Part shown: positions 4,997-49,094 of the stretch, piece after piece
Numbering within the stretch: position 1 is the stretch's first letter
How the letters are laid out: every line of letters starts with the position of its first letter
DNA from: Clostridia bacterium
GTDB taxonomy: Bacteria > Bacillota > Clostridia > TANB77 > CAG-508
Direction of reading: 5' to 3'
DNA length: 49,094 bases
Assembly (NCBI GenBank): GCA_017886645.1
Contig: JAGHJM010000068.1
Span: forward strand, 1 to 49,094
The notes under the pieces: model-generated
What the model was told of the DNA's origin: nothing
What the model saw: only the letters and a program-made list of their open reading frames with translations
Databases searched by the model: none
Position numbers and translations under genes: made by a program

Positions 4997-5836
4997 CTAC
5001 TTTAATAATAATTCGGTTGTTTCTGCACCAACGTATCCATCTACTTCTATTTGGTTTTCCTCTTGGAATTTCTTTATAGTACTTTCCATTATTGGACCAA
5101 AAGAACCATCTACATCCACATTGTATCCTAACCTATTCAAATTTCTTTGAACTAATCTTACATGTTCATTCTTTATTGTGGGAATTTTATAATATAAATA
5201 GTGTTCTAGTGCTTGTTCTCTACAAGCTGGACCAAAGGAGCCATCTATAGCCAAATTACTATTATAATCTAAATTCATTGTATCTTGCCAATTTTTAACA
5301 CGTTTTTCGTAGTTACTATCATTGTTTTTATCTTGAGATTCTTCGGAAGTAGATTCTCCTTGTAATTTTTTCTTAAAGTTATTCCATTTTTCTTCATCAG
5401 TTACAAAAGGAGCAGGACAATTTTTGTGAGTAACATCATAATGTCTTACAACATTTTCAATCGGAATATTATATTTCTGTATTAATTCTTTTGATAATTC
5501 TATTGCTCTTGATTCGGTATCTGATGACACATTTAAATTTCCATTTGACATTTTATAACAACACATTTCTATGCTTAAACTGTTACTGTTTCTAGCACCA
5601 GAGTAATACACATCATTTCCACAATGCCAAGCAATATCTTTATCTTCCACTACTTGTACTACTTCGTTATCATCTACAAAATAATGTGCAGAAGCACCAC
5701 GATAAGTGTTTTTAAAATAACTAGCATTATTTCTTGCTGTAGATACTGCACCTACATAATGAATAACTAAATATTCTATTTTTCTATTGTTAGAAATTGT
5801 TCTATTAGTATTCGTTATGTCTTTAATTATCTCCAT
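4997..5836 (-). CDS. N-acetylmuramoyl-L-alanine amidase (Amidase_2) with C-terminal PG-binding domains, endolysin-like
   Basis: 'LVIHY','ASAHYFVD','AWHCG','SIEMC','VRHYDVTHKNCP'; C-terminal 'VDGSFGP', 'FQ..N.IEVDGYVG' repeats. Confidence 0.9.
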   Translation of the reverse strand: MEIIKDITNTNRTISNNRKIEYLVIHYVGAVSTARNNASYFKNTYRGASAHYFVDDNEVVQVVEDKDIAWHCGNDVYYSGARNSNSLSIEMCCYKMSNGNLNVSSDTESRAIELSKELIQKYNIPIENVVRHYDVTHKNCPAPFVTDEEKWNNFKKKLQGESTSEESQDKNNDSNYEKRVKNWQDTMNLDYNSNLAIDGSFGPACREQALEHYLYYKIPTIKNEHVRLVQRNLNRLGYNVDVDGSFGPIMESTIKKFQEENQIEVDGYVGAETTELLLK

Positions 5837-6119
5837 CTTTATTCACCCCTTCTATATTTGTAGTAAAGCCTAAGTTATCAGCGTTTTCTTTTGGTTGCTC
5901 GGATTCTCCTGTAATTATATTATTATTGTTTTTACTATAATTTATATTTGAAATACCCAAAATTGTACCCATGAAAGTTGTTATAGCTGTCATAATAGTT
6001 AATATTATTTCAGTATAATTGATGTTAAAAGAATTTAGTATTACACCTGTTAGAGTTGTCAAAGCTGGCAAAAATACTAATGTTATCCATTTTAGAACAT
6101 CATATATTTTGTCTGACAT
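5823..6119 (-). CDS. Phage-type holin (Dp-1-like family)
   Basis: 'YDVLKWITLVFLPAL...TFMGTILGISNINY', two TMs, overlaps start of the amidase. Confidence 0.8.
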   Translation of the reverse strand: MSDKIYDVLKWITLVFLPALTTLTGVILNSFNINYTEIILTIMTAITTFMGTILGISNINYSKNNNNIITGESEQPKENADNLGFTTNIEGVNKDGDN

Positions 6120-10796: not shown

Positions 10797-11514
10797 TTAA
10801 ATTTTAGAAAAAACGTTACCTAAACTATCATTAATAACTATATTAGCAATGTTATCTAAAGATGTTGAATCTTTATTTATAAGGATTAAATTCCTTCCAG
10901 AAAAATATCTGATTAATCCACTAGCTGGGTATACAGTTAAAGATGTACCTCCAACAATAAGTGTATCACATGAAGATATAGCTTTTATTGATGAATAGTA
11001 TGTTGAATCATCTAAAGGTTCTTCATATAAAACAACATCAGGTTTTATTATACCGCCACAATTACAATAAGGAATGCCATTAGAATTAAAAATAAAATTA
11101 GCATAATAAAATTTTCCGACACTTTGTACAATAATTTCTTAAAACACTTCCATGTAATTCATAAACAATATTAGAGCCAGCTTTTTGATGAAGACCATCT
11201 ATATTTTGGGTAACTATAGCTTTTAACTTATTCTTTCTTTCAAGTTCTACAAGTTTATGGTGCGTGATATTAGGAGCATATTTTAATGAATTCATTTTCT
11301 CTTTATAAAATTTATAAAATTCTTCAGGATTTTCAATAAAAAAATGATGACTTAAAATTTCTTCAGGTGGAAATTTATATTTTTGATTATAAAGACCATC
11401 TTTACTGCGAAAATCAGGAATGCCACTTTCAGTAGAAACACCAGCTCCTCCAAAAAAAACAATATTATTACTATCTTCAATAATTTTTTTGAATAAATCT
11501 ATTTTTTCATTCAT
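10797..11514 (-). CDS. cobB: NAD-dependent protein deacylase (Sir2/CobB), about 238 aa, needing a +1 frame change at CGG-A (11118-11115)
   Basis: Frame 0 gives GAGVSTESGIPDFRS, TQNIDGLHQKAG, ELHGS, CTKC; the +1 frame continues GKFY...CNCGGIIKPDVVLYEE...GGTSLTVYPA...LINKD to TAA at 10797. Confidence 0.9.
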
Positions 11515-11536
11515 AATTAAAGTCCTTCCAGATAAA

Positions 11537-12247
11537 TTATTCTTTCCATCCATTAATGTTAGCTCTTTTTATTGCTCCTGTAATATTAGCCCTAATGGTA
11601 GGAATTTCTTTTTCAAAATTTATTATCATTTTTTTCATATCTTCTCTTTTAGAAACTCCATCCATAGGACAAACTTTAGGCATTACTTCTATATTATTTC
11701 TTTTAATAAATTTTCTAATTTCTTTTTCTGAAATATATATCATAGGTCTAATTAAAGTAATTTTAGACCTATCCATATAACTTATAGGAGCAAAAGTGTT
11801 TAAGTTTCCGGCATATAATAAATTTAAAAAGAAAGTTTCTAAAACATCGTCTTCATTATGACCTAATGCTATTTTATTACATCCTTCTCTTTGAGCTACA
11901 GAATTTAAAATTCCCCTACGAAGATTTGCACATAAAGAACATGGATTTTTTTCGTTACGAATATCAAATACAATTTCTTTAATGTGTGATTTTTCTTCAA
12001 TAAAAGGAATACCTATTTTTTCACAAGTGCTTTTTAAAAAATCAGAATCAAAAAAGTCAAAGCCAGGATTTATACTAGCACAAATCATATCAAACTTTTT
12101 AGGATAAAATCTTTGCAAAGCTTTTAAGCCCATAGCTAAAGTAATAGAGTCTTTTCCACCAGATAACCCTATTAAAATTTTGTCTCCTTCTTCTATCATA
12201 TTATATTTTTCTATTGCTTTCCTCATATAACTAAGAATTCTTTGCAT
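11537..12247 (-). CDS. ttcA: tRNA 2-thiocytidine(32) synthetase TtcA
   Basis: PP-loop SGGKDS, 'PCSLCANLRRG', 'ALGHNEDD', 'LIRPM', 'CPMDG'. Confidence 0.88.
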   Translation of the reverse strand: MQRILSYMRKAIEKYNMIEEGDKILIGLSGGKDSITLAMGLKALQRFYPKKFDMICASINPGFDFFDSDFLKSTCEKIGIPFIEEKSHIKEIVFDIRNEKNPCSLCANLRRGILNSVAQREGCNKIALGHNEDDVLETFFLNLLYAGNLNTFAPISYMDRSKITLIRPMIYISEKEIRKFIKRNNIEVMPKVCPMDGVSKREDMKKMIINFEKEIPTIRANITGAIKRANINGWKE

Positions 12248-31962: not shown

Positions 31963-31996
31963 GCAATAGAGATAATTTAAAATTATCTCTATTGTT
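31963..31996. terminator. Bidirectional terminator
   Basis: CAATAGAGATAATTT/AAATTATCTCTATTG inverted repeat between convergent genes. Confidence 0.75.
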
Positions 31997-32035: not shown

Positions 32036-33091
32036 TTATGACTTAAATTCCTCTTGAATTTTTTGTATTTCATCATATTTATTATTCAATATATTCAAAA
32101 ATGCTTCTGCTATATTAGGGTCAAATTGTGTGCCAGAGCATCTTTTTATTTCTTGTTTTACATCTTCTATAAGCATTGCATTTCTGTAAGTTCTCTTAGA
32201 TGTCATAGCATCAAAACTATCGGCTACTGCGGCAATTCTAGCTAAATATGGAATTTGTTCACCAACAAGTTTAGATGGGTAACCATTACCATCATATCTT
32301 TCATGATGATGTTTAACAATTGGTAATATATTTTGGAAAACAATTGCATTACACAAGATGTGTGCACCTATTGATGGATGATTTTTTATTTGTGAATATT
32401 CGTCATCAGTTAGTTTAGCTTCTTTAAGTAAGATGCTATCAGGAATACCTATTTTACCAATGTCATGAAATAGACCACCTATTTCAAGTGTTTTTAAATC
32501 TTCAGAAGATACGCCTAATTCTTTACCTAATAGTACAGAAAAAGCAGAGACTCTATCTGAGTGACCTCTAGTATATGGATCCTTAGCTTCTACAGTATAT
32601 CTTAATGTTTGGACAGTATCCAAATAAGCCCTTTCTAATTTTTCATTTGTATTAGCAAGTTCTTCATTAATTCTTTTAATTTCATTCATTTGTTTTACAG
32701 ACTTAATTCCTGACTCAACAAGCAAAAGAAGTTGATCAAATTTATCGCTTTTTTCACAATACCCTTGAATATCAAGCCTTTTAATTGTTTCTAATGGTGG
32801 AGCTAAATCTTTATGTCCAGTTAATAATAAGATATATAATTCTTTATCAAATTTTCTTATTTCTTCAACTACTTTATCTCCATGTATAGGTTCCATTAAA
32901 TAGTCAAGAATCATTAAATCAAAGTGTTCATTTTTAACTAGTTCAATTGCTTCTAATGGATTTGTAACTCCTTTAAAAGAATAACCAGATCTATGCATAA
33001 ATATAGAAAGAGAATCTAAAATTCCTTGTTCGTCATCAACAGCAATTACCTTATAACCTATTGATGAATTAGATTGCATATGTGTTCTCAT
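32036..33091 (-). CDS. Response regulator, REC plus HD-GYP cyclic-di-GMP phosphodiesterase (RpfG-like)
   Basis: REC 'VIAVDDE','LMILDYLM'; HD-GYP 'YTRGHSDRV','HDIGKIG','HHERYDGNGYP','ADSFDAMTS'. Confidence 0.92.
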   Translation of the reverse strand: MRTHMQSNSSIGYKVIAVDDEQGILDSLSIFMHRSGYSFKGVTNPLEAIELVKNEHFDLMILDYLMEPIHGDKVVEEIRKFDKELYILLLTGHKDLAPPLETIKRLDIQGYCEKSDKFDQLLLLVESGIKSVKQMNEIKRINEELANTNEKLERAYLDTVQTLRYTVEAKDPYTRGHSDRVSAFSVLLGKELGVSSEDLKTLEIGGLFHDIGKIGIPDSILLKEAKLTDDEYSQIKNHPSIGAHILCNAIVFQNILPIVKHHHERYDGNGYPSKLVGEQIPYLARIAAVADSFDAMTSKRTYRNAMLIEDVKQEIKRCSGTQFDPNIAEAFLNILNNKYDEIQKIQEEFKS

Positions 33092-35237: not shown

Positions 35238-38200
35238 TTAATTAATAAAGTGTGTTTTTTTCATATAATCAAGTAGCTTTTTAATATAATCACTATCCGG
35301 ATATGGCCACTTAAAATTTAGTTTTTCTAAATATTTTTGTGTAAAATCTGACTTTATGTGCACAGTATAATCATAATTTAAAGTTAGTAAATGATTAGAA
35401 TTATAGGTAACATCATTAATAATATAACTTAAACTAGAATCGCTTTCAGATGAAAGCATATGAAGTCTTTCGTCAAATTCTTTTTCAGATAATATACTAA
35501 TTAAAACATTAGACTTTTTAAAAGAAACTATTAAGTCTTTTATACTAACTAAATTAGGATTATATAAGTTATATATTTTATTATTACAATCAGATTGTTT
35601 GGCTAATAATACAATTGCACCAGCACAATAATCTATAGGAGTAAATTCTATCATTTGAGGTAACATACTATCTGTTACTGCTCCTATTTGCACCATTGAT
35701 TTCAATCTATTGTAAAAAGCATTTTCATAAATTTTTTCTTGGAACATTCCATCAGAATAACGTGCAGATAAAATTCCAATTCTATGTATTTGTGCAATTA
35801 ATCCTTTTTCCATATATGATAATACTATTTTTTCTGATTCAAATTTACTATTTACATATACATTATCAGTATAATGTTGACCTATATATAGTGTATTTTC
35901 AGAAAAAGTAACATCTCTATTACATTGTTTTACTAAATAATTTCCTGAAACACTAATAGAAGAAATATGAATTAATCTCTTTTTATATGCAAATGCGAAA
36001 GCACTAATACTTTTTGTACCATTAATATTTATTTTTTCAAAGTCACTAAAAGATCCATAATGTTTTACTATAGCAGCTGTATGTATAATTGTTGAAAATT
36101 TATTAATGTATGTATTAAATACTGAAATATCTATTCCAAAGTTAGGAAGAGTAACATCTCCTGACACAACTATAATTCTATCGTTAATATATTTAGAAAT
36201 ATCAGTATTAAAATAAAATTTGTATGCTTTAGTTAATCTTTCTAAAGAATGTTCATAACTTCTTCCTCTAACTAAACAGTAAATGGTATTATTAGTTGTA
36301 TTTAGAAGTTCATATAAAACATGAATTCCCACGAAACCATTTGAACCTGTAAGGAAAACATTTCCTAAAGTATCGTCGTCTATATTTATATTGTTTAAAG
36401 CCTCTTCTAAATTAGCATTTGTATGCTTAAATTGCTTTGGAATCTGCACATCTTGCTCGTCGAAATTAGATATATTTGCATCTATTCTTTGTGATAATTT
36501 TTTTATTGTAGGATATTTATAAAAATCCTGAGTAGTAAGTACATAATTATATTTTAAAAGCATGGTTTGGGCCTTAATTATATTCAAAGAGTCTAATCCT
36601 AAATCTAAAAATGAAGAATTAATATTTAATTTCTTTTTACCTAAAATATTTGTTATAACTTCTGCTAATTGTTTTTCTGTTTTAGTAGAAGGTTCTTCAA
36701 TATTTTGTTCTTCAGAAGGTATTTCTGGAAGAAGATTTCTATTTAATTTTCCATTAGGAGTTAATGGAATAGAAGGTATTTTAATAAAATATGCCGGAAT
36801 CATATAGTTAGGTAAACTTTCTAATAAATATGAAGTAATTTCTGAAAAATTACATTCTTTATTAGCAACATAGTAACAAACTAAAAATTTGTTATCTTTA
36901 GCTAATACGACTGCATCTTTAATTCCATTAAAGCCTAGTATTTTTGTTTGGATTTCTTCTAGTTCTATTCTATAGCCTCTTATTTTTACTTGAAAATCAG
37001 TCCTTCCAAGATGTACAATTTCTCCATTATAGTCAATATAAGCAAGGTCATTTGTATTATATATTATTTCACCGGTTTTGAAAGGAGAAGGTTTAAATTT
37101 ATCATTTGTAAGCTCATCTCTATTCCAGTAACCAGGACATACACCATCTCCACCAATATATAGTTCCCCTGGAACACCTGGTGGTAAAATATTCATATCT
37201 TTATCTAAAATATAACATGTTGTATTAGTAATAGGAATACCTACTGTAATTTTTGACGATTTTGTTAAGTCCTTAATAGTAGACCATACTGTAGTTTCTG
37301 TAGGTCCATACATATTAAATATATTTGCATGTACATTTGTACGTAATTTTTGTAGTAATAGTTTAGGAAACGGCTCTCCGCCAACCATAATGTCACTAAA
37401 TATATTCCAAAAATCATCATCTTTATCAATATCTGCTAAAATAGCAGAATATCTTGAAGGAGTAGTTTGAATCATTGTGACATTATTCTTTTCACACAAT
37501 TCTTTTAATTTAAATGGAGAAACCTGTTCTACATCACTTGCAAGAACTAACTTTATACCGCTAGTTAATGCTCCCCATATTTCTAATGCAAAAATATCAA
37601 AACAAATAGTTGTAACAGATACCATAACTTTATTTTTAGAAAAATTAATATATTGCTTTTCTCCTAAGATAAAATTAGTAATATTTTGATGAGTAATCAT
37701 TACACCTTTTGGTTTTCCAGTAGAACCAGAAGTATAAATTAAGTATATTAAATCTCTAGGATTAATTTTTATGTTTAAATTATTAGTATTTTGATTATTG
37801 TAAAAATCCGAATTAATATCTACATTTATTTTTGTATAATTATCACCAATATTTAAGTTTAAAGTAGCAGAATGCACTAATATAGTTTTTGAATGGCTAT
37901 CTTCAAGCATATAATTAATTCTCTCAATAGGATATTCTGGGTCAATTGGCAAATATGTTGCTCCTAACTTTAATACAGCTAAAATAGCAATAATCATTTC
38001 AGAAGAACGATGTATCATAATACCTACAACATCTTTAGCTTTAATACCATTATCTAACAAATAATAGGCTAATTGATTTGCTTTTTTATTTAGTTCTTTA
38101 TAAGTAAAAGACTGATCTTCAAAAATTAAAGCAATATTATTTGGATTTTTTTTAACTTGCTTTTCAAACAAATCAATAACAGTAAGTGTTTTATTATAAT

Positions 38201-39554
38201 CCATATAAGTATTATTGAAATCATTTAAAATAAAATTTTTTTCTTCTGGGGTAATAATTTCAATATCTTTAATTAACAAATTATTAGATGATAATAACTG
38301 CGAAATTATATAGCATATTCTATTATGCAAACGTACAATATCTTCTTGAGTATATTTATTCATACGATAATCGTATGCTATATTTAAAATACCTTCATCA
38401 TTCATGTCAAACAAATGAATTTGCATAGAATCTGCAACATTTTTGTTAAATGTCCATCTTACTTCATAGTCAATATCAGAACTATTTCTGTTTGTTTTTG
38501 TATTTTGATAAGAAATTAAAATATCATATAAGTTAGGTTGAGAAGGATTATTTTTTCTAATGTATTCTAATATATTTTCATATGGATATTTTTGGTGTCT
38601 AAACATACTTAAAGCATCAAATGCAATATTTTTACATAAATCAATAAAACTATAATTTTTATCAATAAAAAATTTAAAAGGAAGTGTACTTATAAACATT
38701 CCTGGGGTATTTTTTTCAACAAAATTAGATCTATTTAAAATAGGAGTACCTATTATAAATTTTTCTAAAGAAGTAACTTTACTAATGTAGATTGCATAAA
38801 TACCCATAAAAAAGTTAAATACAGAAATTTTATATTTTGAGCAAAATTCATTAATTAATTTCATATTAGAATTAGAAATTGTAAATGATTTTCTATTTGC
38901 TCTGCAAGAGACCGTATTTTCATCTTTAATAGAAGGAATAGATGCTACTTCATAATTAGTAGAAAATATCTCTTCCCAATATTCTTTATCTTTTCTAAAT
39001 TTTGTATCAGAAAAGTATGATTTTTCTGAATTTATATAATTAATATAAGATGTTGGGGAATCTGTAGAATCTATACCTTGTACCAATGAAGAGTAAATTG
39101 TTATAATTTTACTTGCAACTAAACTTGCAGTACAAGCGTCGGCTACTAAATGGTGGGCGTTAACAATAAAACCACCAGAATTATCTTTAAAACGAAATAA
39201 TTGAATTTTAAAAAGTTGAGAATCAACTAAAGAAAATGGAATTGATGCTATTTTATTTTCCAATAACAATAAATCATCATAACTATTTAATAAAATAATA
39301 GGGTCACTATCTAAAATATAGTCATTAGAAAAATATTGCTTATATTCCTGCTTATCATTTAAGGTTAAACGAATTCTAAAACTATCATTTTCTTTTAAAA
39401 ATATATGAATTGCATTAATTAGTTTTTCAAAATTAATTTTTTCTTTTATTAGTACAGTTCCACAAATATTATTAACTGTAGTATTTTTATAGAACTGTTC
39501 TGTATATAATATTGCTTTTTGTGGACTAGTTAAATTATATAAATTTTTCCCCAT
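35238..39554 (-). CDS. Monomodular NRPS, C-A-T-R (terminal thioester reductase)
   Basis: C 'HHLVADA'; A 'YTSGSTGKPKG','NMYGPTETT','QVKIRGYRIE','PLTPNGK'; T 'FLDLGLDSL'; R 'FLTGSNGFVG','YVNSK'; start could extend to 39566. Confidence 0.93.
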   Translation of the reverse strand: MGKNLYNLTSPQKAILYTEQFYKNTTVNNICGTVLIKEKINFEKLINAIHIFLKENDSFRIRLTLNDKQEYKQYFSNDYILDSDPIILLNSYDDLLLLENKIASIPFSLVDSQLFKIQLFRFKDNSGGFIVNAHHLVADACTASLVASKIITIYSSLVQGIDSTDSPTSYINYINSEKSYFSDTKFRKDKEYWEEIFSTNYEVASIPSIKDENTVSCRANRKSFTISNSNMKLINEFCSKYKISVFNFFMGIYAIYISKVTSLEKFIIGTPILNRSNFVEKNTPGMFISTLPFKFFIDKNYSFIDLCKNIAFDALSMFRHQKYPYENILEYIRKNNPSQPNLYDILISYQNTKTNRNSSDIDYEVRWTFNKNVADSMQIHLFDMNDEGILNIAYDYRMNKYTQEDIVRLHNRICYIISQLLSSNNLLIKDIEIITPEEKNFILNDFNNTYMDYNKTLTVIDLFEKQVKKNPNNIALIFEDQSFTYKELNKKANQLAYYLLDNGIKAKDVVGIMIHRSSEMIIAILAVLKLGATYLPIDPEYPIERINYMLEDSHSKTILVHSATLNLNIGDNYTKINVDINSDFYNNQNTNNLNIKINPRDLIYLIYTSGSTGKPKGVMITHQNITNFILGEKQYINFSKNKVMVSVTTICFDIFALEIWGALTSGIKLVLASDVEQVSPFKLKELCEKNNVTMIQTTPSRYSAILADIDKDDDFWNIFSDIMVGGEPFPKLLLQKLRTNVHANIFNMYGPTETTVWSTIKDLTKSSKITVGIPITNTTCYILDKDMNILPPGVPGELYIGGDGVCPGYWNRDELTNDKFKPSPFKTGEIIYNTNDLAYIDYNGEIVHLGRTDFQVKIRGYRIELEEIQTKILGFNGIKDAVVLAKDNKFLVCYYVANKECNFSEITSYLLESLPNYMIPAYFIKIPSIPLTPNGKLNRNLLPEIPSEEQNIEEPSTKTEKQLAEVITNILGKKKLNINSSFLDLGLDSLNIIKAQTMLLKYNYVLTTQDFYKYPTIKKLSQRIDANISNFDEQDVQIPKQFKHTNANLEEALNNINIDDDTLGNVFLTGSNGFVGIHVLYELLNTTNNTIYCLVRGRSYEHSLERLTKAYKFYFNTDISKYINDRIIVVSGDVTLPNFGIDISVFNTYINKFSTIIHTAAIVKHYGSFSDFEKININGTKSISAFAFAYKKRLIHISSISVSGNYLVKQCNRDVTFSENTLYIGQHYTDNVYVNSKFESEKIVLSYMEKGLIAQIHRIGILSARYSDGMFQEKIYENAFYNRLKSMVQIGAVTDSMLPQMIEFTPIDYCAGAIVLLAKQSDCNNKIYNLYNPNLVSIKDLIVSFKKSNVLISILSEKEFDERLHMLSSESDSSLSYIINDVTYNSNHLLTLNYDYTVHIKSDFTQKYLEKLNFKWPYPDSDYIKKLLDYMKKTHFIN

Positions 39555-39579
39555 AATTATCACCAATTTTATAAAGTAT

Positions 39580-41289
39580 TTAATTATTACTATTACGTAA
39601 ATTAATCTTTTTTAATTCTTCGCTTCTTTTTATCTTTTGCGTGGTAGTCTTAATTAAAGGCTCATTAGTTAAAGTGAATTTTCTTATATATTTATATATT
39701 GGAAGATTTTTATTAATCATACTAATTTCATTAGTAATTTTATCATGTAATAAATTTTCGTCCATATTTAAAGAAGAGATATATTCTTTAGAATAAACAA
39801 TTTCTGCACATATTTTTTCATTTTCTTCATAAACCATACTTTCTAAAATATAGTCAGACTTATTTAACAAATCCTCTAATTCCTGTGGAAAAACTTTTTT
39901 TCCATTTGAAAGTACAATAACATCTTTTTTTCTACCAGTAATAAATAAACGTCCTTTTTTATCAAAATGGCCAATATCACCAGTATAAAACCATCCATCT
40001 ATTATTGATTTTTTAGTTAAATCTTCATTGTTGTAATAACCCAACATGATGTTTGGTCCTTTAACTAAAATTTCTCCGTCACCGTTGGAATCAGGATTAT
40101 TAATTTTTACTTGTAAATTATGCAAAGGATATCCACAACATCCTGATGCATCATGATATTTGTCACTTTCACAAGATATAACAGGAGAAGTCTCAGTTAA
40201 GCCATAACCTTGAATCATATCAATTCCAATTGAATTAAATAATTTAATTTTCTTTTTATCAGATGAGGCAGAACCATAAATAATTGTTCTAAGATTTCCT
40301 CCTAAGTTATCCAGAACTTCCTTAAAGAATTTTCTTCTTAAGTCTATACCAAAAAATCTTAAGAAGTTTGAAACTTTACACATTATCATAAATAAAGTAT
40401 ATTTTTTCTTTTTCTTAACTCCCTTAATAATTTGTTTGTACATAATATCAATTAATGCTGGAACACAAACTAATCCACTAATTTTATATTCGATTAAGTT
40501 TTTACCAATATCTTTTATGCTATCTGCAAAACATATTCTAAAACCTACATAATAGCAGAATAAGAAACTTGCAGTACAAGCAAGAGTATGATGTAATGGT
40601 AAAAATACTAATATACTATCATTAGGTTCATATTTAATTAAAGTAGTCATTGCGGAAACATTTGAACAAATATTATATTGTGATAGCATAACAGCTTTAG
40701 GATTGCCTGTTGTACCAGATGTATATAATAAAACTGATAATTTATCTTTATCTATTTTTATAGAATCATATTTAGTATCATTAGAATCTAAAAAAGATTT
40801 CCCTTTATTTAAAAGACGACAATAAGATAGTATGTTATCTTCGTCTGAAGGAAAATCCATACAAATACAATATTTTAAGTTTGTATTATTAGAATTAAGT
40901 AGGTCTTTTATTAACTTAAGATGTTTTGAGTCAAAAATAACAGCATCAACTTTACTGTTAACTATTAAAGTTGATAATTCAACATCAGGAGATAAATGAT
41001 CTAATGGAACTACAATGTTATTAGAGGTCGATATAGCAAAATAGCTAGTACACCATTCATATCTAGGTGAAGAAATTAAAGCTATTTTTTTATCAATTAA
41101 CCCCATATTTAGTAAAGCGGTTCCTATAGACTTAATATCATATTTAAAATCATTAAATGAAATATCATATAATTTTTTATTCGAATCTTTTATTGTAAAT
41201 GCAATTTTATCTCCAAATTCCTTAGTAGTGATATCAATTAATTGTCTGAAATCATTGGCAGTTTTTTCGCTATAAATTTTGTTTTTCAT
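39580..41289 (-). CDS. Long-chain fatty acyl-CoA/AMP ligase
   Basis: 'LLYTSGTTGNPKAVML','FLPLHH','QGYGLTETSP','GWFYTGDIG','ITGRKKDVIVLSNGKKVFP'; AGGAG SD before ATG 41289. Confidence 0.9.
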   Translation of the reverse strand: MKNKIYSEKTANDFRQLIDITTKEFGDKIAFTIKDSNKKLYDISFNDFKYDIKSIGTALLNMGLIDKKIALISSPRYEWCTSYFAISTSNNIVVPLDHLSPDVELSTLIVNSKVDAVIFDSKHLKLIKDLLNSNNTNLKYCICMDFPSDEDNILSYCRLLNKGKSFLDSNDTKYDSIKIDKDKLSVLLYTSGTTGNPKAVMLSQYNICSNVSAMTTLIKYEPNDSILVFLPLHHTLACTASFLFCYYVGFRICFADSIKDIGKNLIEYKISGLVCVPALIDIMYKQIIKGVKKKKKYTLFMIMCKVSNFLRFFGIDLRRKFFKEVLDNLGGNLRTIIYGSASSDKKKIKLFNSIGIDMIQGYGLTETSPVISCESDKYHDASGCCGYPLHNLQVKINNPDSNGDGEILVKGPNIMLGYYNNEDLTKKSIIDGWFYTGDIGHFDKKGRLFITGRKKDVIVLSNGKKVFPQELEDLLNKSDYILESMVYEENEKICAEIVYSKEYISSLNMDENLLHDKITNEISMINKNLPIYKYIRKFTLTNEPLIKTTTQKIKRSEELKKINLRNSNN

Positions 41290-41494
41290 ACCAAAATCTC
41301 CTACACTCAAAATATCAAACTCATTTTATCATTTTATATTTTATTATACAACACTTTTGTTAATAAATTATTCTAAAAAATGCAGTAGGAAAGCTAATTT
41401 AGTTAAATTATACTAAATAATAAAGTGAAGTTTTTGTTTAAAAAAAATAATTGTGTTTAAAATATAAATATGAAAGGAAAGTGATATAAAAAAT

Positions 41495-42631
41495 ATGGCA
41501 AAATACATAAAAAGAGAAAAAAGTAAAAAAGCAAAAAAATACTTATTAGGAATAATAATAAGCTTTTTAATTATATTAGTAATTGCACTATTATATCAAA
41601 TGTATATAAAAATAGATGTAAAAGAAGAAAATGAAGGATTTTCTGCCGAAAGAACCGTACAAACAGTAGAAACAAATGAAAATATAACAACAGTACTGGA
41701 AAATACTACACAATGCGTTGTAGGAATATCTAAATTAAAAAATACAGGAAGTACCATATTTTTAAACGATGGTGTTAGCCAATTAGGATTGGGAAGCGGA
41801 GTTATAATAACAGAAAATGGGTATATTTTGTCAAATGAACATGTAACAGGAGAAAAATATAGTACATGCTATGTTACATTAGAAGATGGTAGAAACTACA
41901 AAGCAAATGTAGTGTGGTCAGACTCAAATATAGATTTATCAATATCTAAAATTAATATGACAGGATTGCCATATGCTAATCTTGGAAATTCTGAAAATAT
42001 AAGAATAGGACAAAGTGTTTATGCAATAGGAAATCCAATTGGATTTGAATTTCAAAGGACAGTAACAGCAGGGATTATAAGTGCAGTTGATAGAACAATA
42101 AAAATAGACGAAGAAGATGAAAATGGAAATGAAATTACATCTTATATGGATGATTTAATACAAACAGATGCTACAATTAATAAAGGAAATAGTGGAGGAC
42201 CACTAATAAATGAAAATGGGGAGATTATAGGAATAACATCTGTAAAAATTACATCTGCAGAGGGAATTGGGTTTGCAGTACCAATAAATATAATAAAACC
42301 AATCATAGATAAATATAAAACAGACGGAAAATTTGAAGAAGCAACACTAGGAATTTTTGCATATGATAAAAATATAATTCCATATATAGATTCAAATATA
42401 AGTTTAGATAAAGGAATTTATGTAGCTCAAATAGTAAATTACTCACCAGCAAGTAAAGCTAATTTAAAGGTGGGAGATGTAATAGAAAAAATTGATGATG
42501 TAGAACTAAATAAAATGAGCGATTTAAGAAGATATATTTATCAGAAAAATCCAGGAGATAAAGTAAATTTAACAATATATAGGAATAAAAAAGAGTATAA
42601 TATAGAAATAACTCTTGGAAAAAAATCATGA
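41495..42631 (+). CDS. htrA: HtrA-family serine protease with PDZ domain
   Basis: TM anchor, 'GSGVII','LSNEHV','IQTDATINKGNSGGPL', C-terminal PDZ. Confidence 0.93.
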   Translation: MAKYIKREKSKKAKKYLLGIIISFLIILVIALLYQMYIKIDVKEENEGFSAERTVQTVETNENITTVLENTTQCVVGISKLKNTGSTIFLNDGVSQLGLGSGVIITENGYILSNEHVTGEKYSTCYVTLEDGRNYKANVVWSDSNIDLSISKINMTGLPYANLGNSENIRIGQSVYAIGNPIGFEFQRTVTAGIISAVDRTIKIDEEDENGNEITSYMDDLIQTDATINKGNSGGPLINENGEIIGITSVKITSAEGIGFAVPINIIKPIIDKYKTDGKFEEATLGIFAYDKNIIPYIDSNISLDKGIYVAQIVNYSPASKANLKVGDVIEKIDDVELNKMSDLRRYIYQKNPGDKVNLTIYRNKKEYNIEITLGKKS

Positions 42632-44313: not shown

Positions 44314-44976
44314 ATGAAAACGATATTAATTGTAGAAGATAATATTGATATTCATAACTTAATACAAGAAATTTTACAAAAAGAAAATTATAGAGTTATA
44401 AATAGTTATTCAGGAACAGAAGCTTTAATGATGCTAGAAAAAGAAAAAATAGATTTAATTTTATTAGATTTAATGCTTCCTGGATTAAGCGGAGAAGAAA
44501 TTATAAAAAAAGTAAAAAATATTCCTATTATAGTTATTAGTGCAAAAATATCTCCGGAAGATAAAGTAAATGTATTGCTAAATGGGGCAAATGACTATAT
44601 AACAAAACCATTTAATAAAGAAGAACTTTTAGCAAGAATTAAAGTTCAATTAAGAATTAACGCAGATAGAAAAGAAAGAAAAGAGTTGAAGTATAAGGAT
44701 ATGTATTTAAAAGAAGACAAACATACCTTATATATTAAAGATAGAAAATTACATTTAACTAAAACAGAATATGCGATATTAAAACAATTACTTATAAATC
44801 CAAAAGAAGTAGTAACAAAGAGCAAATTACTTGAATTAATTAGCGATGATACTTTAGATTGTGATGAAAACTCATTAAAAGTTCATATAAGTAATATAAG
44901 AAAGAAAATACGAAGTGTAACTCAAGAAGAATATATAGAATCTGTATGGGGCATAGGGTTTAAAATTCACGAGTAA
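44314..44976 (+). CDS. OmpR-family response regulator
   Basis: 'ILIVEDN','LILLDLMLP','GANDYITKPF', winged helix 'KVHISNIRKK..IESVWGIGF'. Confidence 0.95.
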   Translation: MKTILIVEDNIDIHNLIQEILQKENYRVINSYSGTEALMMLEKEKIDLILLDLMLPGLSGEEIIKKVKNIPIIVISAKISPEDKVNVLLNGANDYITKPFNKEELLARIKVQLRINADRKERKELKYKDMYLKEDKHTLYIKDRKLHLTKTEYAILKQLLINPKEVVTKSKLLELISDDTLDCDENSLKVHISNIRKKIRSVTQEEYIESVWGIGFKIHE

Positions 44977-44978
44977 AA

Positions 44979-45022
44979 TCTTAACTGAATTTTAACTATT
45001 TTCTTAACCGATTTCTTAACTA
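44979..45022 (+). promoter_or_regulatory. Four direct repeats (TTAAC core), probable OmpR-type binding sites
   Basis: TTAAC at 44981, 44992, 45004 and 45016, upstream of the ABC gene. Confidence 0.6.
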
Positions 45023-45057
45023 TTTAATAATAAAATAAATATTGAGAGGAGGAGGTT

Positions 45058-45972
45058 ATGGAATATATATTAGAAACACATAATTTAGAAAAAAAATATG
45101 GTCGTTTTAAAGTATTAAGCAATTTAAATATGCACATACCAAAAGGTTCTATATATGGACTTATTGGGAAAAATGGTGCAGGTAAAACTACATTAATTAG
45201 AATAGTTTGTGGATTACAAAAACCAACATTGGGGACATACACTTTGTATGGAATTTCAAATGAAAGTCGTAAGATAATTAATGCAAGAAAAAGAATAGGA
45301 GCAATTATAGAATCTCCATCAATATGTCTTGACATGACAGCAGAAGATAATTTAAAAGAGCAGTATAAAGTCATAGGGATTCCTAATTTTGATAATTTAC
45401 ATGAAATATTAAAACTAGTAAGGTTAGACGATACGGGGAAAAAGACTGCAAAACATTTTTCTTTAGGAATGAAACAAAGATTAGCAATAGCAATAGCATT
45501 AGTAGGAAATCCAGATTTACTTATTTTAGATGAACCTATAAACGGACTAGACCCAGAAGGAATTATTGAGATTAGAGAATTAATTTTAAAATTAAATAAA
45601 GAAAAAGGAATTACTTTTCTAATCTCAAGCCATTATTTAGATGAGCTATCTAAAATTGCAACATGTTATGGCTTCATCGATAAATGTAGAATTGTTAAAG
45701 AAATTAGTAGTGAGGAATTAGAGCAAAATTTTAGAAAGAAAACACAAATAAATGTAAACAACGTAAAAGAATGTGTTAAATATTTAGAAGAAAATAAAAT
45801 ACAGTATAAAGTTATTTCTGATGAAATAATTGATATATATGATAAAATAAACATTTCAGACTTTGTTATTGCACTTTCTAAAAGAGATTGTATAGTAAAT
45901 AACATGCAAGAAAAAGACGAATCTCTTGAAAACTATTATTTGAATTTAATAGGAGGTGCAGACAATGTATAA
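45058..45972 (+). CDS. BcrA/LanF-like ABC transporter ATP-binding protein
   Basis: GKNGAGKTT, FSLGMKQRL, ILDEPINGLDP, ISSH. Confidence 0.92.
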   Translation: MEYILETHNLEKKYGRFKVLSNLNMHIPKGSIYGLIGKNGAGKTTLIRIVCGLQKPTLGTYTLYGISNESRKIINARKRIGAIIESPSICLDMTAEDNLKEQYKVIGIPNFDNLHEILKLVRLDDTGKKTAKHFSLGMKQRLAIAIALVGNPDLLILDEPINGLDPEGIIEIRELILKLNKEKGITFLISSHYLDELSKIATCYGFIDKCRIVKEISSEELEQNFRKKTQINVNNVKECVKYLEENKIQYKVISDEIIDIYDKINISDFVIALSKRDCIVNNMQEKDESLENYYLNLIGGADNV

Positions 45973-46775
45973 ATTATTAAAGGCAGGTTTTTTTAGGTTA
46001 AAAAAAGACATTATATTTTGGCTTTTTATATTTATAACAGTGGTAATTGCTGTTTTTACTTTGTTTACACATGAAAAAGATATAGTATTAGATACAATTA
46101 TAGACAATTTTATAATGTATATAGGACTTTTCATAGGCATATTTGTTAGTATATTTGTAGGAAAAGAATATTCGGAAGGAATTATTAGAAATAAAATAAT
46201 AGTTCGGACATAGCAGAATTTCTATTTATTTAGTAAACCTTATAATTAGTATTGTTACATCAATATTATGTGAGTTAATTTATCTTGTAATAATGTTAGC
46301 AATTGGTATTCCAATGTTTGGTGGCTTACAAATGCCAGTACAAGAATTTTTAATGTATATATTAAATGTAATTCTAATTATTATAGCATTTTGTTCTATT
46401 TATACTTTTATAACAATGGTATGTTCAGAGATAACGGTTTCAGCAACAATTAGTATATTTCTTTTTATTGCAATGTTTATTGCACAAAGTTCTTTTGGAC
46501 TAACAGCTAATGCAGATCCATATATAACAAATACATATACTGATGAAAATGGAGTTACCGAAATAATTAGCCAAAAGCCAGATCCAAGATATCCAGGAGA
46601 TGAAATAGTTAAAATGGCGAGAGTAATCTATCTATTAATTCCACAAGGTCAAGCTATGGAAATAGGAAGCGGTGATACAGAATATTTATATCAAATGCCA
46701 ATATATTCTGTTATAATTATATGTATTATAAATATTATTGGAATATATTTATTCACAAAAAAGGAGTTAAAGTAA
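45965..46775 (+). CDS. ABC-2 type permease, about 269 aa, needing a +1 frame change at CGG-A (46205-46208)
   Basis: Frame 0 ends 'EYSEGIIRNKIIV'; +1 frame continues 'GHSRISIYL...' without stops into the 46293 ORF, restoring the family motif EYxxGxIRNKxxxGxSR. Confidence 0.87.
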
Positions 46776-47669
46776 GTGGAAAGTGTGGATATAGCATTGT
46801 ATATTTTAATTATAATGTTATTTATTTTATGTATTTTTATGTGTTTAAAAATTTACTTTTTTAAAAGAGCTATAAAAGAAATAAGTGATTCTTTAAATGA
46901 TATATTAAATACAGATACTAATAATTTAATAAATATATCTTCATCAGATGAAGATATAAAAAAATTAGCAACAACTTTAAATATAAATCTTAAAGAACTA
47001 AGAAAACAAAAATTACAATATGAAAATGGAAATCAAGAGCTAAAAAGAGTTGTTACTAATATTTCACATGATTTAAGAACCCCATTAACTGCTATAAATG
47101 GATATATTGATTTAATGAAGAATGATAAATTATCTAAAGAGCAAGAAAAATACTTAAGTATAATTTATAATAAATCAAATGAATTAGTAGAACTTACGGA
47201 ACAACTATTTGATTATTCCAAAGCTATAGATAATAATGTAGAATTGAATAAAGAAAAATGTTGCATAAATGAAGTGCTAGAGGAAGTATTAGTAAGTTAT
47301 TATACAGTTTTTAAAGAAAATGGTATTACACCAGAAATATCAATTTGTGAAAATAAAATATATAAAATGTTAAATAAAGCTTCTGTAGTGAGAATATTTG
47401 AAAATATTTTATCAAACATAAGTAAATATAGTAATGGAAATTTTAAAGCTGAATTGGGAGATAATGGAATAATAACTTTCTCTAATAAAGCAAGAATGTT
47501 AGATGCAACAACGGTAGAAAAAATTTTTGATAGATATTTTACGGTAGAAAATGCTAAAAAATCTACTGGACTTGGACTTTCTATTGCAAAACAATTAGTA
47601 GAATTAAACGGAGGAAAAATTTTAGCTAAATATATAGATGAAAATTTAATTATACAGATTATGTTTTAG
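46776..47669 (+). CDS. Sensor histidine kinase (small intramembrane-sensing type)
   Basis: 'NISHDLRTPLT','ENILSN','IFDRYFT','STGLGLSIAK'. Confidence 0.92.
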   Translation: MESVDIALYILIIMLFILCIFMCLKIYFFKRAIKEISDSLNDILNTDTNNLINISSSDEDIKKLATTLNINLKELRKQKLQYENGNQELKRVVTNISHDLRTPLTAINGYIDLMKNDKLSKEQEKYLSIIYNKSNELVELTEQLFDYSKAIDNNVELNKEKCCINEVLEEVLVSYYTVFKENGITPEISICENKIYKMLNKASVVRIFENILSNISKYSNGNFKAELGDNGIITFSNKARMLDATTVEKIFDRYFTVENAKKSTGLGLSIAKQLVELNGGKILAKYIDENLIIQIMF

Positions 47670-48398: not shown

Positions 48399-49094
48399 TC
48401 AATCACTTTTATCTTCTGCTGAAAAGTCAACTCCAAAAATTTCTTTACCAATTAAATATTTTTCAACATTCTTATTTTCAGAATTTTCGAATTCACTATC
48501 TACATCAACATAATATTGCATTGTAACTGTAATATCTGAATGTCCTAATATCTTTTTCAAAACTGCTGGAGCAATCTTAGCTTCAGCGCACCTAGTAGCA
48601 AATGTTCCTCTTAACATATGTGTATGAACATCAGTCTTTTGAACGATTTGACCTTTTTTATCTTTATCCTCATATATGCCTATTCCAAGTTTTAGTGCAA
48701 TTCTTTTTATACTACTATTAATAGTGTTTTCTATATACATTGTTTTGTCTTCTTTACAAAATAGTAGATGATTTTTATTTGGTATTTTATGCTCTAGTGC
48801 TGCTTCAACTATTCGTTTACTAATATTGGTCATAGTTAAAATTCTTTCACCATTTTCAGTTTTAGCAGTTTCACCAATTATTGCTTTCCCAGCAGTATTT
48901 TTAGTTTGAGTTTTTCTTATATAAATTTTTCCGTTTACCATGTCAATATCTTTTTCATAATCTAAAACTAATGCTTCTCCAATTCTCATTCCTGTAGTTA
49001 ATAGTAATAAAAACAGATATTTCTTATGACATTTTTCATATTTTACAGAATTTAAATAATCTACTAATTTCTTTTGTTCTTCAATGGTTAGAGA
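48399..49094 (-). CDS. Tyrosine recombinase/integrase, 5' part outside the window
   Basis: 'LLLTTGMRIGEA','HMLRGTFAT','LGHSDITVTMQYY'; frame open to the right edge. Confidence 0.93.
   Translation of the reverse strand, partial: SLTIEEQKKLVDYLNSVKYEKCHKKYLFLLLLTTGMRIGEALVLDYEKDIDMVNGKIYIRKTQTKNTAGKAIIGETAKTENGERILTMTNISKRIVEAALEHKIPNKNHLLFCKEDKTMYIENTINSSIKRIALKLGIGIYEDKDKKGQIVQKTDVHTHMLRGTFATRCAEAKIAPAVLKKILGHSDITVTMQYYVDVDSEFENSENKNVEKYLIGKEIFGVDFSAEDKSD

Follow-up and report, generated by a model that had tools for sequence, protein, structure and literature searches.

Positions 1 to 49,094 of contig JAGHJM010000068.1 from a Clostridia bacterium (GenBank assembly GCA_017886645.1; 1.46 Mb in 116 contigs, 81% complete, hereafter G000) were analyzed as one stretch, referred to here as the window. 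From 41310 to 32036, its minus strand carries one cassette encoding an acyl-CoA-type ligase (P0002), a one-module nonribosomal peptide synthetase (NRPS; P0001), a membrane histidine kinase (P0003), and a REC-HD-GYP response regulator (P0004). Judged from domain content and specificity code, this cassette probably makes N-acyl-glycinal and releases it from the synthetase. Across related genomes the sensor of the kinase was found to vary together with the substrate code of the synthetase, and we tentatively consider the product as a candidate ligand of the kinase.

The open reading frame (ORF) of the synthetase ends at 35238 and, according to the ORF listing, starts either at 39566 (TTG) or at 39554 (ATG). 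A ribosome-binding site, GGTGA, lies 6 nt 5′ of the ATG, and translation from there yields 1438 aa, exactly the length of P0006, a 99% identical protein that represents a cluster of 52 member sequences; the coordinates 35238..39554, given in an earlier note made from the letters alone, are therefore exact. Residue numbers used here count from the TTG at 39566. Four Pfam families were matched above their cut-offs, in the order condensation (C), adenylation (A), carrier (T), and thioester reductase (R): Condensation (residues 9-446, 3.9e-67), AMP-binding (467-814, 2e-88), PP-binding (966-1028, 3.6e-07), and NAD_binding_4 (1072-1318, 4.2e-43). Among the NCBIfam models, TIGR01733 (adenylation) scored 398.8 against a cut-off of 317.4, and TIGR01746 (thioester reductase, residues 1069-1441) scored 189.5, slightly under its cut-off of 213.35. 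The catalytic motifs HHLVADA, YTSGSTGKPKG, GRTDFQVKIRGYRIELEEI, PNGK, LGLDSL, TGSNGFVG, and YVNSK were found in the translation, with the C motif ending in Ala, not Gly, and motif A7 reading YNTNDL. The C-A-T-R architecture proposed in the earlier note was thus confirmed, and every motif quoted there (HHLVADA, CFDIFALE, MIQTTPS, IMVGGE, NMYGPTETTVW, PNGKLNR, LTGSNGFVG, YVNSK) was recovered. G+C content is about 23-30% throughout the window, and the composition is unbroken at the NRPS locus.

In the mechanism that we propose, the A domain would load glycine onto the carrier domain, as its code suggests, and the N-terminal C domain would N-acylate this glycine with a fatty acyl chain. The most likely donor would be acyl-CoA supplied by the adjacent ligase or by one of its four paralogues; acyl carrier protein (ACP)-bound acyl chains are an alternative, since FabF is present in the assembly. 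The reductase, using NAD(P)H, would then free the N-acyl-glycyl thioester as N-acyl-glycinal, which other enzymes may reduce to N-acylethanolamine or oxidise to N-acylglycine. Three lines of evidence make N-acyl-glycinal the most likely released product, and on balance a probable one: (i) the glycine code, (ii) the class of the C domain, shared with the first C domains of two-module relatives, and (iii) the aldehyde products reported for related clusters.

Among solved structures, the reductase domain is nearest to the 6vtj PCP-R didomain (182 bits), followed by the AusA reductase at 132 bits and MxaA at 86 bits. Of the reductases that have been characterised, AusA's is the closest in sequence, and we take it to be aldehyde-forming; we know of no sequence rule that predicts the depth of reduction. 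The earlier note had also considered N-acylethanolamine as the end product, in which case the reductase would perform two successive reductions and the enzyme itself would be an N-acylethanolamine synthase. Four-electron thioester reductases do exist (myxochelin MxcG and myxalamid MxaA), MxcG is the second-best NCBIfam match of the whole protein (505 bits), MxaA is among the solved relatives of the domain, and conversion of glycine to ethanolamine on an NRPS has a precedent in linear gramicidin. There, however, the second reduction is carried out by a separate reductase, and a domain scan of the window ORFs found no second reductase in the cassette, nor an aminotransferase or a transporter. 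Moreover, the AusA reductase outscores MxaA, and the products reported for related gut clusters are aldehydes. According to PMC8518294, the Clostridium NRPS cluster BGC0001686 yields N-octanoyl-Met-Phe-H when expressed in E. coli, and ruminopeptin from Ruminococcus is an N-acylated Leu-Glu aldehyde; PMC8210680 mentions an N-acyl tail. Full reduction to N-acylethanolamine could occur, yet no result of this analysis supports it, and a four-electron synthase appears unlikely. Full-text searches of a limited set of papers returned no paper on N-acylethanolamine with an NRPS reductase domain and none on C-A-T-R with Clostridium N-acyl or gut aldehyde; for glycinal together with nonribosomal, only tetrahydroisoquinoline and mutanobactin papers were retrieved.

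The specificity code was read by anchoring on the core motifs A4, A5, and A10. The ten residues obtained, DILQMGMVWK, conform to the D-I-L-Q-x-G-x-x-W-K type with the pattern complete, so that the glycine-type code read by eye in the earlier note was re-derived independently of its GrsA alignment. From 125 proteins, including 120 best matches, we retained 32 one-module synthetases, among them P0001, with lengths of 1400-1460 aa. DILQMGMVWK is the code of 30 of them, and the other two read DILQMGMIWK and DILQLGMIWK, with overall identity down to 56%. For the 131-aa pocket stretch, the best solved match was 5u89 (aligned residues D-I-L-Q-L-G-L-I-W) and the third-best 4zxh (D-I-L-Q-L-G-V-V-W), and the best solved match of the whole protein was linear gramicidin synthase A (LgrA), residues 882-1795, with 804 bits. 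We take all three to be glycine-activating: 5u89 as DhbF module 1, 4zxh as AB3403 crystallised with glycine, and LgrA as its module 2. Activation of glycine by the A domain is a well-supported prediction. As a separate observation, one-module synthetases of the order display at least 10 different specificity codes; these include DILQMGMVWK, DLTKIGEVGK, DFWNIGMVHK and DFWNVGMVHK, DVWHFSLVDK, DSELTAEVCK, DIFQMAGIFK, DIFLIGLVYK, DVAYLGGICK, and DAIFGGTMFK (loci L022-L033, L002-L006, and L045-L055). In two-module forms, codes of the glycine type are the most frequent ones in module 1 as well as in module 2.

The ligase gene lies 14 bp upstream of the NRPS gene. The best NCBIfam match of P0002 is a long-chain-fatty-acid-CoA ligase (238 bits, cut-off 476), in agreement with the adjacent acyl ligase noted earlier; its best solved relatives are CoA ligases and luciferases (about 100-113 bits), with fatty acyl-AMP ligases scoring only about 57 bits. 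A ligase with 66-67% identity to P0002 occupies the same position at L002-L004. A second alternative to the proposed product concerns the substrates: glycine might not be what the A domain activates, or the C domain might use a short acyl-CoA (acetyl, butyryl), and the product would then not be a fatty N-acyl-glycine derivative. The code differs from 5u89 at 3 of 9 aligned positions and from 4zxh at 2 of 9, and no sequence feature fixes the acyl donor; the ligase has paralogues and is absent at some related loci. Yet D-I-L-Q-x-G-x-x-W is complete, the differences are swaps among Leu, Met, Val, and Ile, a family member carries DILQLGMIWK, and the neighbouring ligase falls into the long-chain class. 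We regard this alternative as improbable.

To classify the C domain, a profile was built from one-module C domains, and segments covering at least 330 profile positions were kept. The resulting 231 segments comprised 48 one-module C domains and, from two-module proteins, 92 first and 91 internal ones. First C domains scored 290-808 bits, and their HHxxxD motif was followed by Ala or Ser in 83 cases and by Gly in three (no match in six), whereas internal C domains scored only 94-175 bits and read HHxxxDG in all 91. One-module C domains matched their own profile by construction (323-852 bits). By these measures the C domain of P0001 groups with the first C domains of its two-module relatives and not with the internal ones. 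In addition, module 1 of the two-module protein P0010 aligns collinearly with residues 5-1028 of P0001 at 59% identity, so P0001 looks like a two-module synthetase minus its second module. The C domain is the single Condensation match in the 81% complete assembly, and the only PP-binding matches are the NRPS carrier domain and one 80-aa ACP; it therefore appears to have no aminoacyl or peptidyl donor. Among the 32 close one-module relatives, 16 have Ser and one has Asn in place of the first His of HHxxxD; every one of the 32 retains the second His and the Asp. That the C domain is inactive or vestigial, with free aminoacetaldehyde or ethanolamine being released, would fit the loss of the first His in 17 of these 32 proteins but is very improbable, because the second His is the catalytic one, P0001 has both, and one-module C domains are conserved along their full length.

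Immediately downstream, the ribosome-binding site of the kinase gene, AAGGAGAG, lies within the 14-bp gap that follows the NRPS stop. Neither the synthetase-kinase gap nor the kinase-regulator gap holds a terminator-like site, and a terminator-like hairpin directly 3′ of the regulator gene is likely to mark the end of the operon (terminator-like sites in total: 5 found vs 1.6 expected). Promoter-like matches occurred at chance level (69 found vs 79.8 expected) and were not used. In Pfam, no family was found in the sensor of the window's kinase even at E = 1, and a search of the ESM Atlas with the sensor returned only generic sensor-like clusters at 0.89-0.92. P0004 scored 214 bits against the NCBIfam model for a cyclic di-GMP (c-di-GMP) phosphodiesterase regulator (cut-off 400); its translation contains HDIGK and HHERYDGNGYP, leaving the HD and HHExxDGxGYP motifs intact. 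Synthesis of c-di-GMP is likely present as well, since two GGDEF matches were detected in the assembly.

The order synthetase, kinase, and, where the flank reaches, regulator was conserved in every fetched locus with enough flank (L002, L003, L005-L007, and L022-L033, from five families of the order). The synthetase family was found in 56 of 61 sampled genomes of the order. Kinase sensors fell into type A, the type of the window (21 genomes), and type B, with HisKA_7TM and PAS (32 genomes); the two types occurred together in none of the 61. One or the other was present in 53 of the 56 synthetase-bearing genomes and in none of the five synthetase-less ones. Thus, of the eight genomes with neither sensor type, five have no synthetase match (61-97% complete), and in the other three the synthetase is cut by a contig end or present only in part. 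In the five synthetase-less genomes, only distant paralogues of the regulator were detected (29-36% identity). All 21 type-A kinases pair with one-module synthetases, and type-B kinases pair with multi-module synthetases in 25 genomes and with one-module synthetases in seven, all of family f3. These counts reflect few independent events, because the genomes are kin. Some loci were unusual: G004 carries two one-module synthetase-kinase cassettes (on C15 and C18), G038 has two type-B kinases in tandem (G038:C2:44315-47138), and a synthetase match in G002 (G002:C12:17440-21667) contains in-frame stops and may be a pseudogene. A full-text search of a limited set of papers for HD-GYP and histidine kinase together with nonribosomal peptide in Clostridia returned one unrelated rumen AI-2 paper.

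To describe the pattern of variation, the window genes were compared with their counterparts in the same-genus loci L025-L029, L032, and L033. Identity was 77-82% for the flanking Tex protein, 78-81% for the response regulator, and 72-75% for the kinase core, but 40-46% for the synthetase and 29-32% for the kinase sensor, where the latter was alignable at all (type-B sensors were not). Within the synthetase, the A, T, and R domains vary like the sensor, and the C domain follows phylogeny. In pairwise comparisons of 15 type-A kinases, pairs with different A-domain codes showed a sensor identity of 22-31% at any core identity (47-75%), and pairs with the same code showed a higher one at comparable core identity. 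The window sensor shares 34-35% identity with those of two other glycine-code loci from another family (core 54-57%), and only 28-30% with those of same-genus loci carrying DLTKIGEVGK, presumably an asparagine code, though the core identity there is 72-75%. Consistently, a genome search with the window sensor ranked the two glycine-code genomes first and second (233 and 204 bits; all others at most 180). The remaining 11 type-A loci all have non-glycine codes, with sensor identities of 27-32%. Hence the kinase sensor tracks the A-domain code, although the two glycine-code genomes share one genus and therefore amount in effect to one comparison.

A hypervariable synthetase and a hypervariable sensor that tracks its code suggest a signal-receptor pair, and we put forward such a relationship between the synthetase product and the kinase as a tentative proposal. 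The arrangement resembles an agr-style specificity block, with variable synthase and sensor and a conserved transducer. Since the regions encoding A-T-R and the sensor are contiguous, one recombination event could move both. Extended to the whole cassette, the idea would be a pherotype-like cell-to-cell signalling system, in which an NRPS-derived lipo-amino aldehyde or alcohol is the ligand of the co-transcribed kinase and c-di-GMP is controlled via the RpfG-like regulator; this, too, we consider conceivable, with somewhat more speaking for other roles. Under such a signalling scheme, A-domain specificity and sensor might diversify together, as in agr groups.

Several points weigh against reading these genes as one N-acyl-glycinal cassette. 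First, DILQxGxxWK-type codes specify glycine, but our literature search found no paper confirming this. Second, among solved structures, elongation C domains match the C domain of P0001 better (TycC 73.6 bits, LgrA C2 65 bits) than starter C domains do (RzmA 49.8, SrfAA 45.9, CDA-C1 30 bits). The starter role claimed for the C domain in the earlier note is accordingly a putative one, drawn from its position, with no upstream carrier in the assembly, and from the within-family comparison that gives its first-C class, and not from these scores. Third, no ligase lies beside the NRPS in five same-genus one-module loci (L025-L029), and P0002 is one of five long-chain acyl-CoA-ligase-type paralogues in the assembly, so the ligase may not be dedicated to the synthetase. 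Fourth, no Sfp-type phosphopantetheinyl transferase (PPTase) was found in the 81% complete assembly, whose sole ACPS-family match (C39:3180-3515) lies in a 134-aa, AcpS-sized frame. Fifth, an RNA-library contig (35111-35620) bridges the synthetase stop and the kinase start, which is proof neither of transcription nor of a single transcript; elsewhere the cassette is covered by such contigs only in places, which says nothing about the stretches in between. Finally, P0001 is assigned to the reductase-terminated NRPS clusters of gut Clostridia by architecture and taxon, and its homology to the characterised members is putative.

Some side observations concern the accessory enzymes. A domain scan detected no PPTase family among the window ORFs, as the earlier note had stated. 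With PF01648, exactly one PPTase was found in 40 of 41 genomes searched (G000 included), and two in G067. Almost all of them are encoded in frames of AcpS size (about 125-155 aa), despite the presence of NRPS; in genus g7 only, the single match lies in a frame of about 200 aa adjoining the NRPS. Examples of PPTase matches are G048:C7:51149-51331 and G044:C2:100844-101026. The ligase paralogue on C69 contains two in-frame TAA stops.

The organism is probably an inhabitant of the gut, the setting in which the earlier note had expected its product to matter. Titles of records for relatives name Clostridium sp. CAG:245 and metagenome-assembled genomes from human (Hadza) gut and roe deer omasum, i.e. 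human-gut and ruminant Clostridia, and a 9.4-kb stretch is near-identical in runs labelled chicken gut metagenome. At least half of the words of this stretch were found in 17 runs, and 10 studies are represented among all carrying runs. Two metatranscriptomic runs from one study carry about 0.3 of the words, and the contig at 35111-35620 comes from them.

Synthetases of gut Clostridia that end in a reductase are known to produce dipeptide aldehydes that inhibit proteases. The one-module glycine form cannot yield a classical peptide-aldehyde inhibitor. Its predicted product N-acyl-glycinal stands chemically between N-acylethanolamines and N-acylglycines, both of which are classes of host signalling lipids. 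With the conserved kinase and regulator downstream, which the earlier note did not take into account, the product becomes a possible signal among bacteria, where a lipid aimed at the host would otherwise have been the likely role; the host could read such a signal too, because such lipids resemble host N-acyl amides. If the signalling proposal is true, these clusters, widespread in small-genome gut Clostridia, would be bacterial communication systems and not only sources of host-directed inhibitors. Positions of the features discussed are compiled in Table 1.

Table 1. Features of the cassette and its surroundings (window coordinates unless a contig of G000 is given).
Feature	Position	Strand	Basis or remark
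One-module NRPS, C-A-T-R (P0001)	35238..39554	minus	ORF, Pfam, NCBIfam, ribosome-binding site
N-terminal condensation domain, HHLVADA; putative lipoinitiation (starter) C	38229..39542	minus	Pfam residues 9-446
Adenylation domain, code DILQMGMVWK (glycine type)	36717..38168	minus	Pfam and code extraction
Carrier (T) domain; attachment serine in LGLDSL	36483..36671	minus	Pfam and translation
Thioester reductase domain, TGSNGFVG and Y-x3-K	35244..36362	minus	TIGR01746, NAD_binding_4
Acyl-CoA-ligase-type adenylating enzyme (P0002)	39580..41310	minus	AMP-binding (6.3e-60) and AMP-binding_C_3; likely start ATG 41289
Membrane histidine kinase (P0003), 669 aa	33214..35223	minus	N-terminal sensor of about 400 aa, then HisKA and HATPase_c
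Response regulator REC + HD-GYP (P0004), predicted c-di-GMP phosphodiesterase	32036..33091	minus	Pfam Response_reg, HD_5, HD
Terminator-like hairpin, 14-bp stem and T tract	31964..31994	minus	Directly 3′ of regulator gene; consensus match only
Divergent HtrA-like serine protease (P0005)	41495..42631	plus	Adjoins cassette in families f1, f5
Ligase paralogues in G000	C20:39583-41310, C40:2898-4595, C69:24544-26259, C83:8223-9923, C18:547-2280		

The HtrA-like protease gene next to the cassette lies elsewhere in the genome in some members of f2 and f4, and f3 yielded no more than a distant paralogue. That a protease should neighbour a putative aldehyde synthase is suggestive; the association does not hold, however, in f2, f3, or f4. 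Orthologues adjoining the NRPS are 57-72% identical in genus g1 and 44-52% in f5. G000 has a second HtrA-like protease (C22:15551-16468), and the four synthetase-less g1 genomes with any HtrA match have the second paralogue only (38-42%). A candidate case of the cassette being replaced beside HtrA in a synthetase-less genome was rejected, the locus being different and non-syntenic. Elsewhere in the window, scattered phage-like genes (129-704, 4997-6119, 48399-49094) comprise one for a repressor-like protein of S24/HTH type, those for an amidase and a Dp-1-type holin, and an ORF of the phage-integrase family that extends past the window end. A second two-component set at 44314-47669 (OmpR-type regulator, ABC ATPase, ABC-2 permease, small histidine kinase) resembles peptide-sensing or detoxification modules, and a Sir2-family ORF of 151 aa (11098-11553), which matches positions 1-116 of a 180-position profile, may be a truncated gene or have a wrongly assigned start.

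Among known systems, the gut peptide-aldehyde NRPS clusters share most with P0001: they occur in gut Clostridia and combine a terminal thioester reductase with an N-terminal C domain, N-acylation, and aldehyde release. Guo and colleagues reportedly described such clusters of gut Clostridia in Cell in 2017. The characterised enzymes are, as we understand, two-module C-A-T-C-A-T-R proteins, the architecture of the two-module relatives of P0001. Clusters of this kind, including the ruminopeptin cluster of Ruminococcus bromii, are treated in PMC8518294, PMC8210680, and PMC12327764. P0001 departs from the described dipeptide-aldehyde makers in three respects: it has a single module, it is glycine-specific by its code, and its gene is linked to those of a kinase and of an HD-GYP regulator. 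Because it has one module, its product would be an acyl-amino aldehyde and not a dipeptide aldehyde, and glycine, which lacks a side chain, would offer nothing to a protease pocket, unlike the dipeptide aldehydes. To our knowledge, a constant linkage to a kinase and HD-GYP regulator is not part of the gut peptide-aldehyde clusters.

The best whole-length NCBIfam matches of P0001 are AusA (A-T-C-A-T-R, 734 bits) and MxcG (C-A-T-R, 505 bits). MxcG has the same domain order as P0001 and acylates lysine with dihydroxybenzoate; AusA lacks the first C domain. P0001 is neither of the two, as these scores compare with cut-offs of 2500 and 2300. Linear gramicidin, whose LgrA gave the best solved match, offers a known chemical route: its glycyl thioester is reduced by the terminal reductase (LgrD Gly-T-R with LgrE) to a C-terminal ethanolamine. 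There, a 15-residue peptide and not a fatty acid sits on the glycine, and a separate reductase makes the alcohol, an enzyme that the cassette of P0001 lacks.

In the Rpf/DSF system, RpfB is the ligase, RpfF the synthase, RpfC the kinase, and RpfG the REC-HD-GYP regulator. The cassette has a similar set: besides an acyl-CoA ligase and a putative lipid synthase, it encodes a kinase that passes the membrane several times and a regulator of the REC-HD-GYP type; no RpfF-type crotonase was found among the window ORFs by domain scan. With agr it shares the hypervariability of synthase and kinase sensor next to a conserved kinase core and regulator. Its synthase is an NRPS, however, not a crotonase as in Rpf or a peptide-processing enzyme as in agr, and its kinase is not a hybrid. 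In its possible mode of action, the cassette may therefore be likened to lipid quorum-sensing systems rather than counted as one of them.

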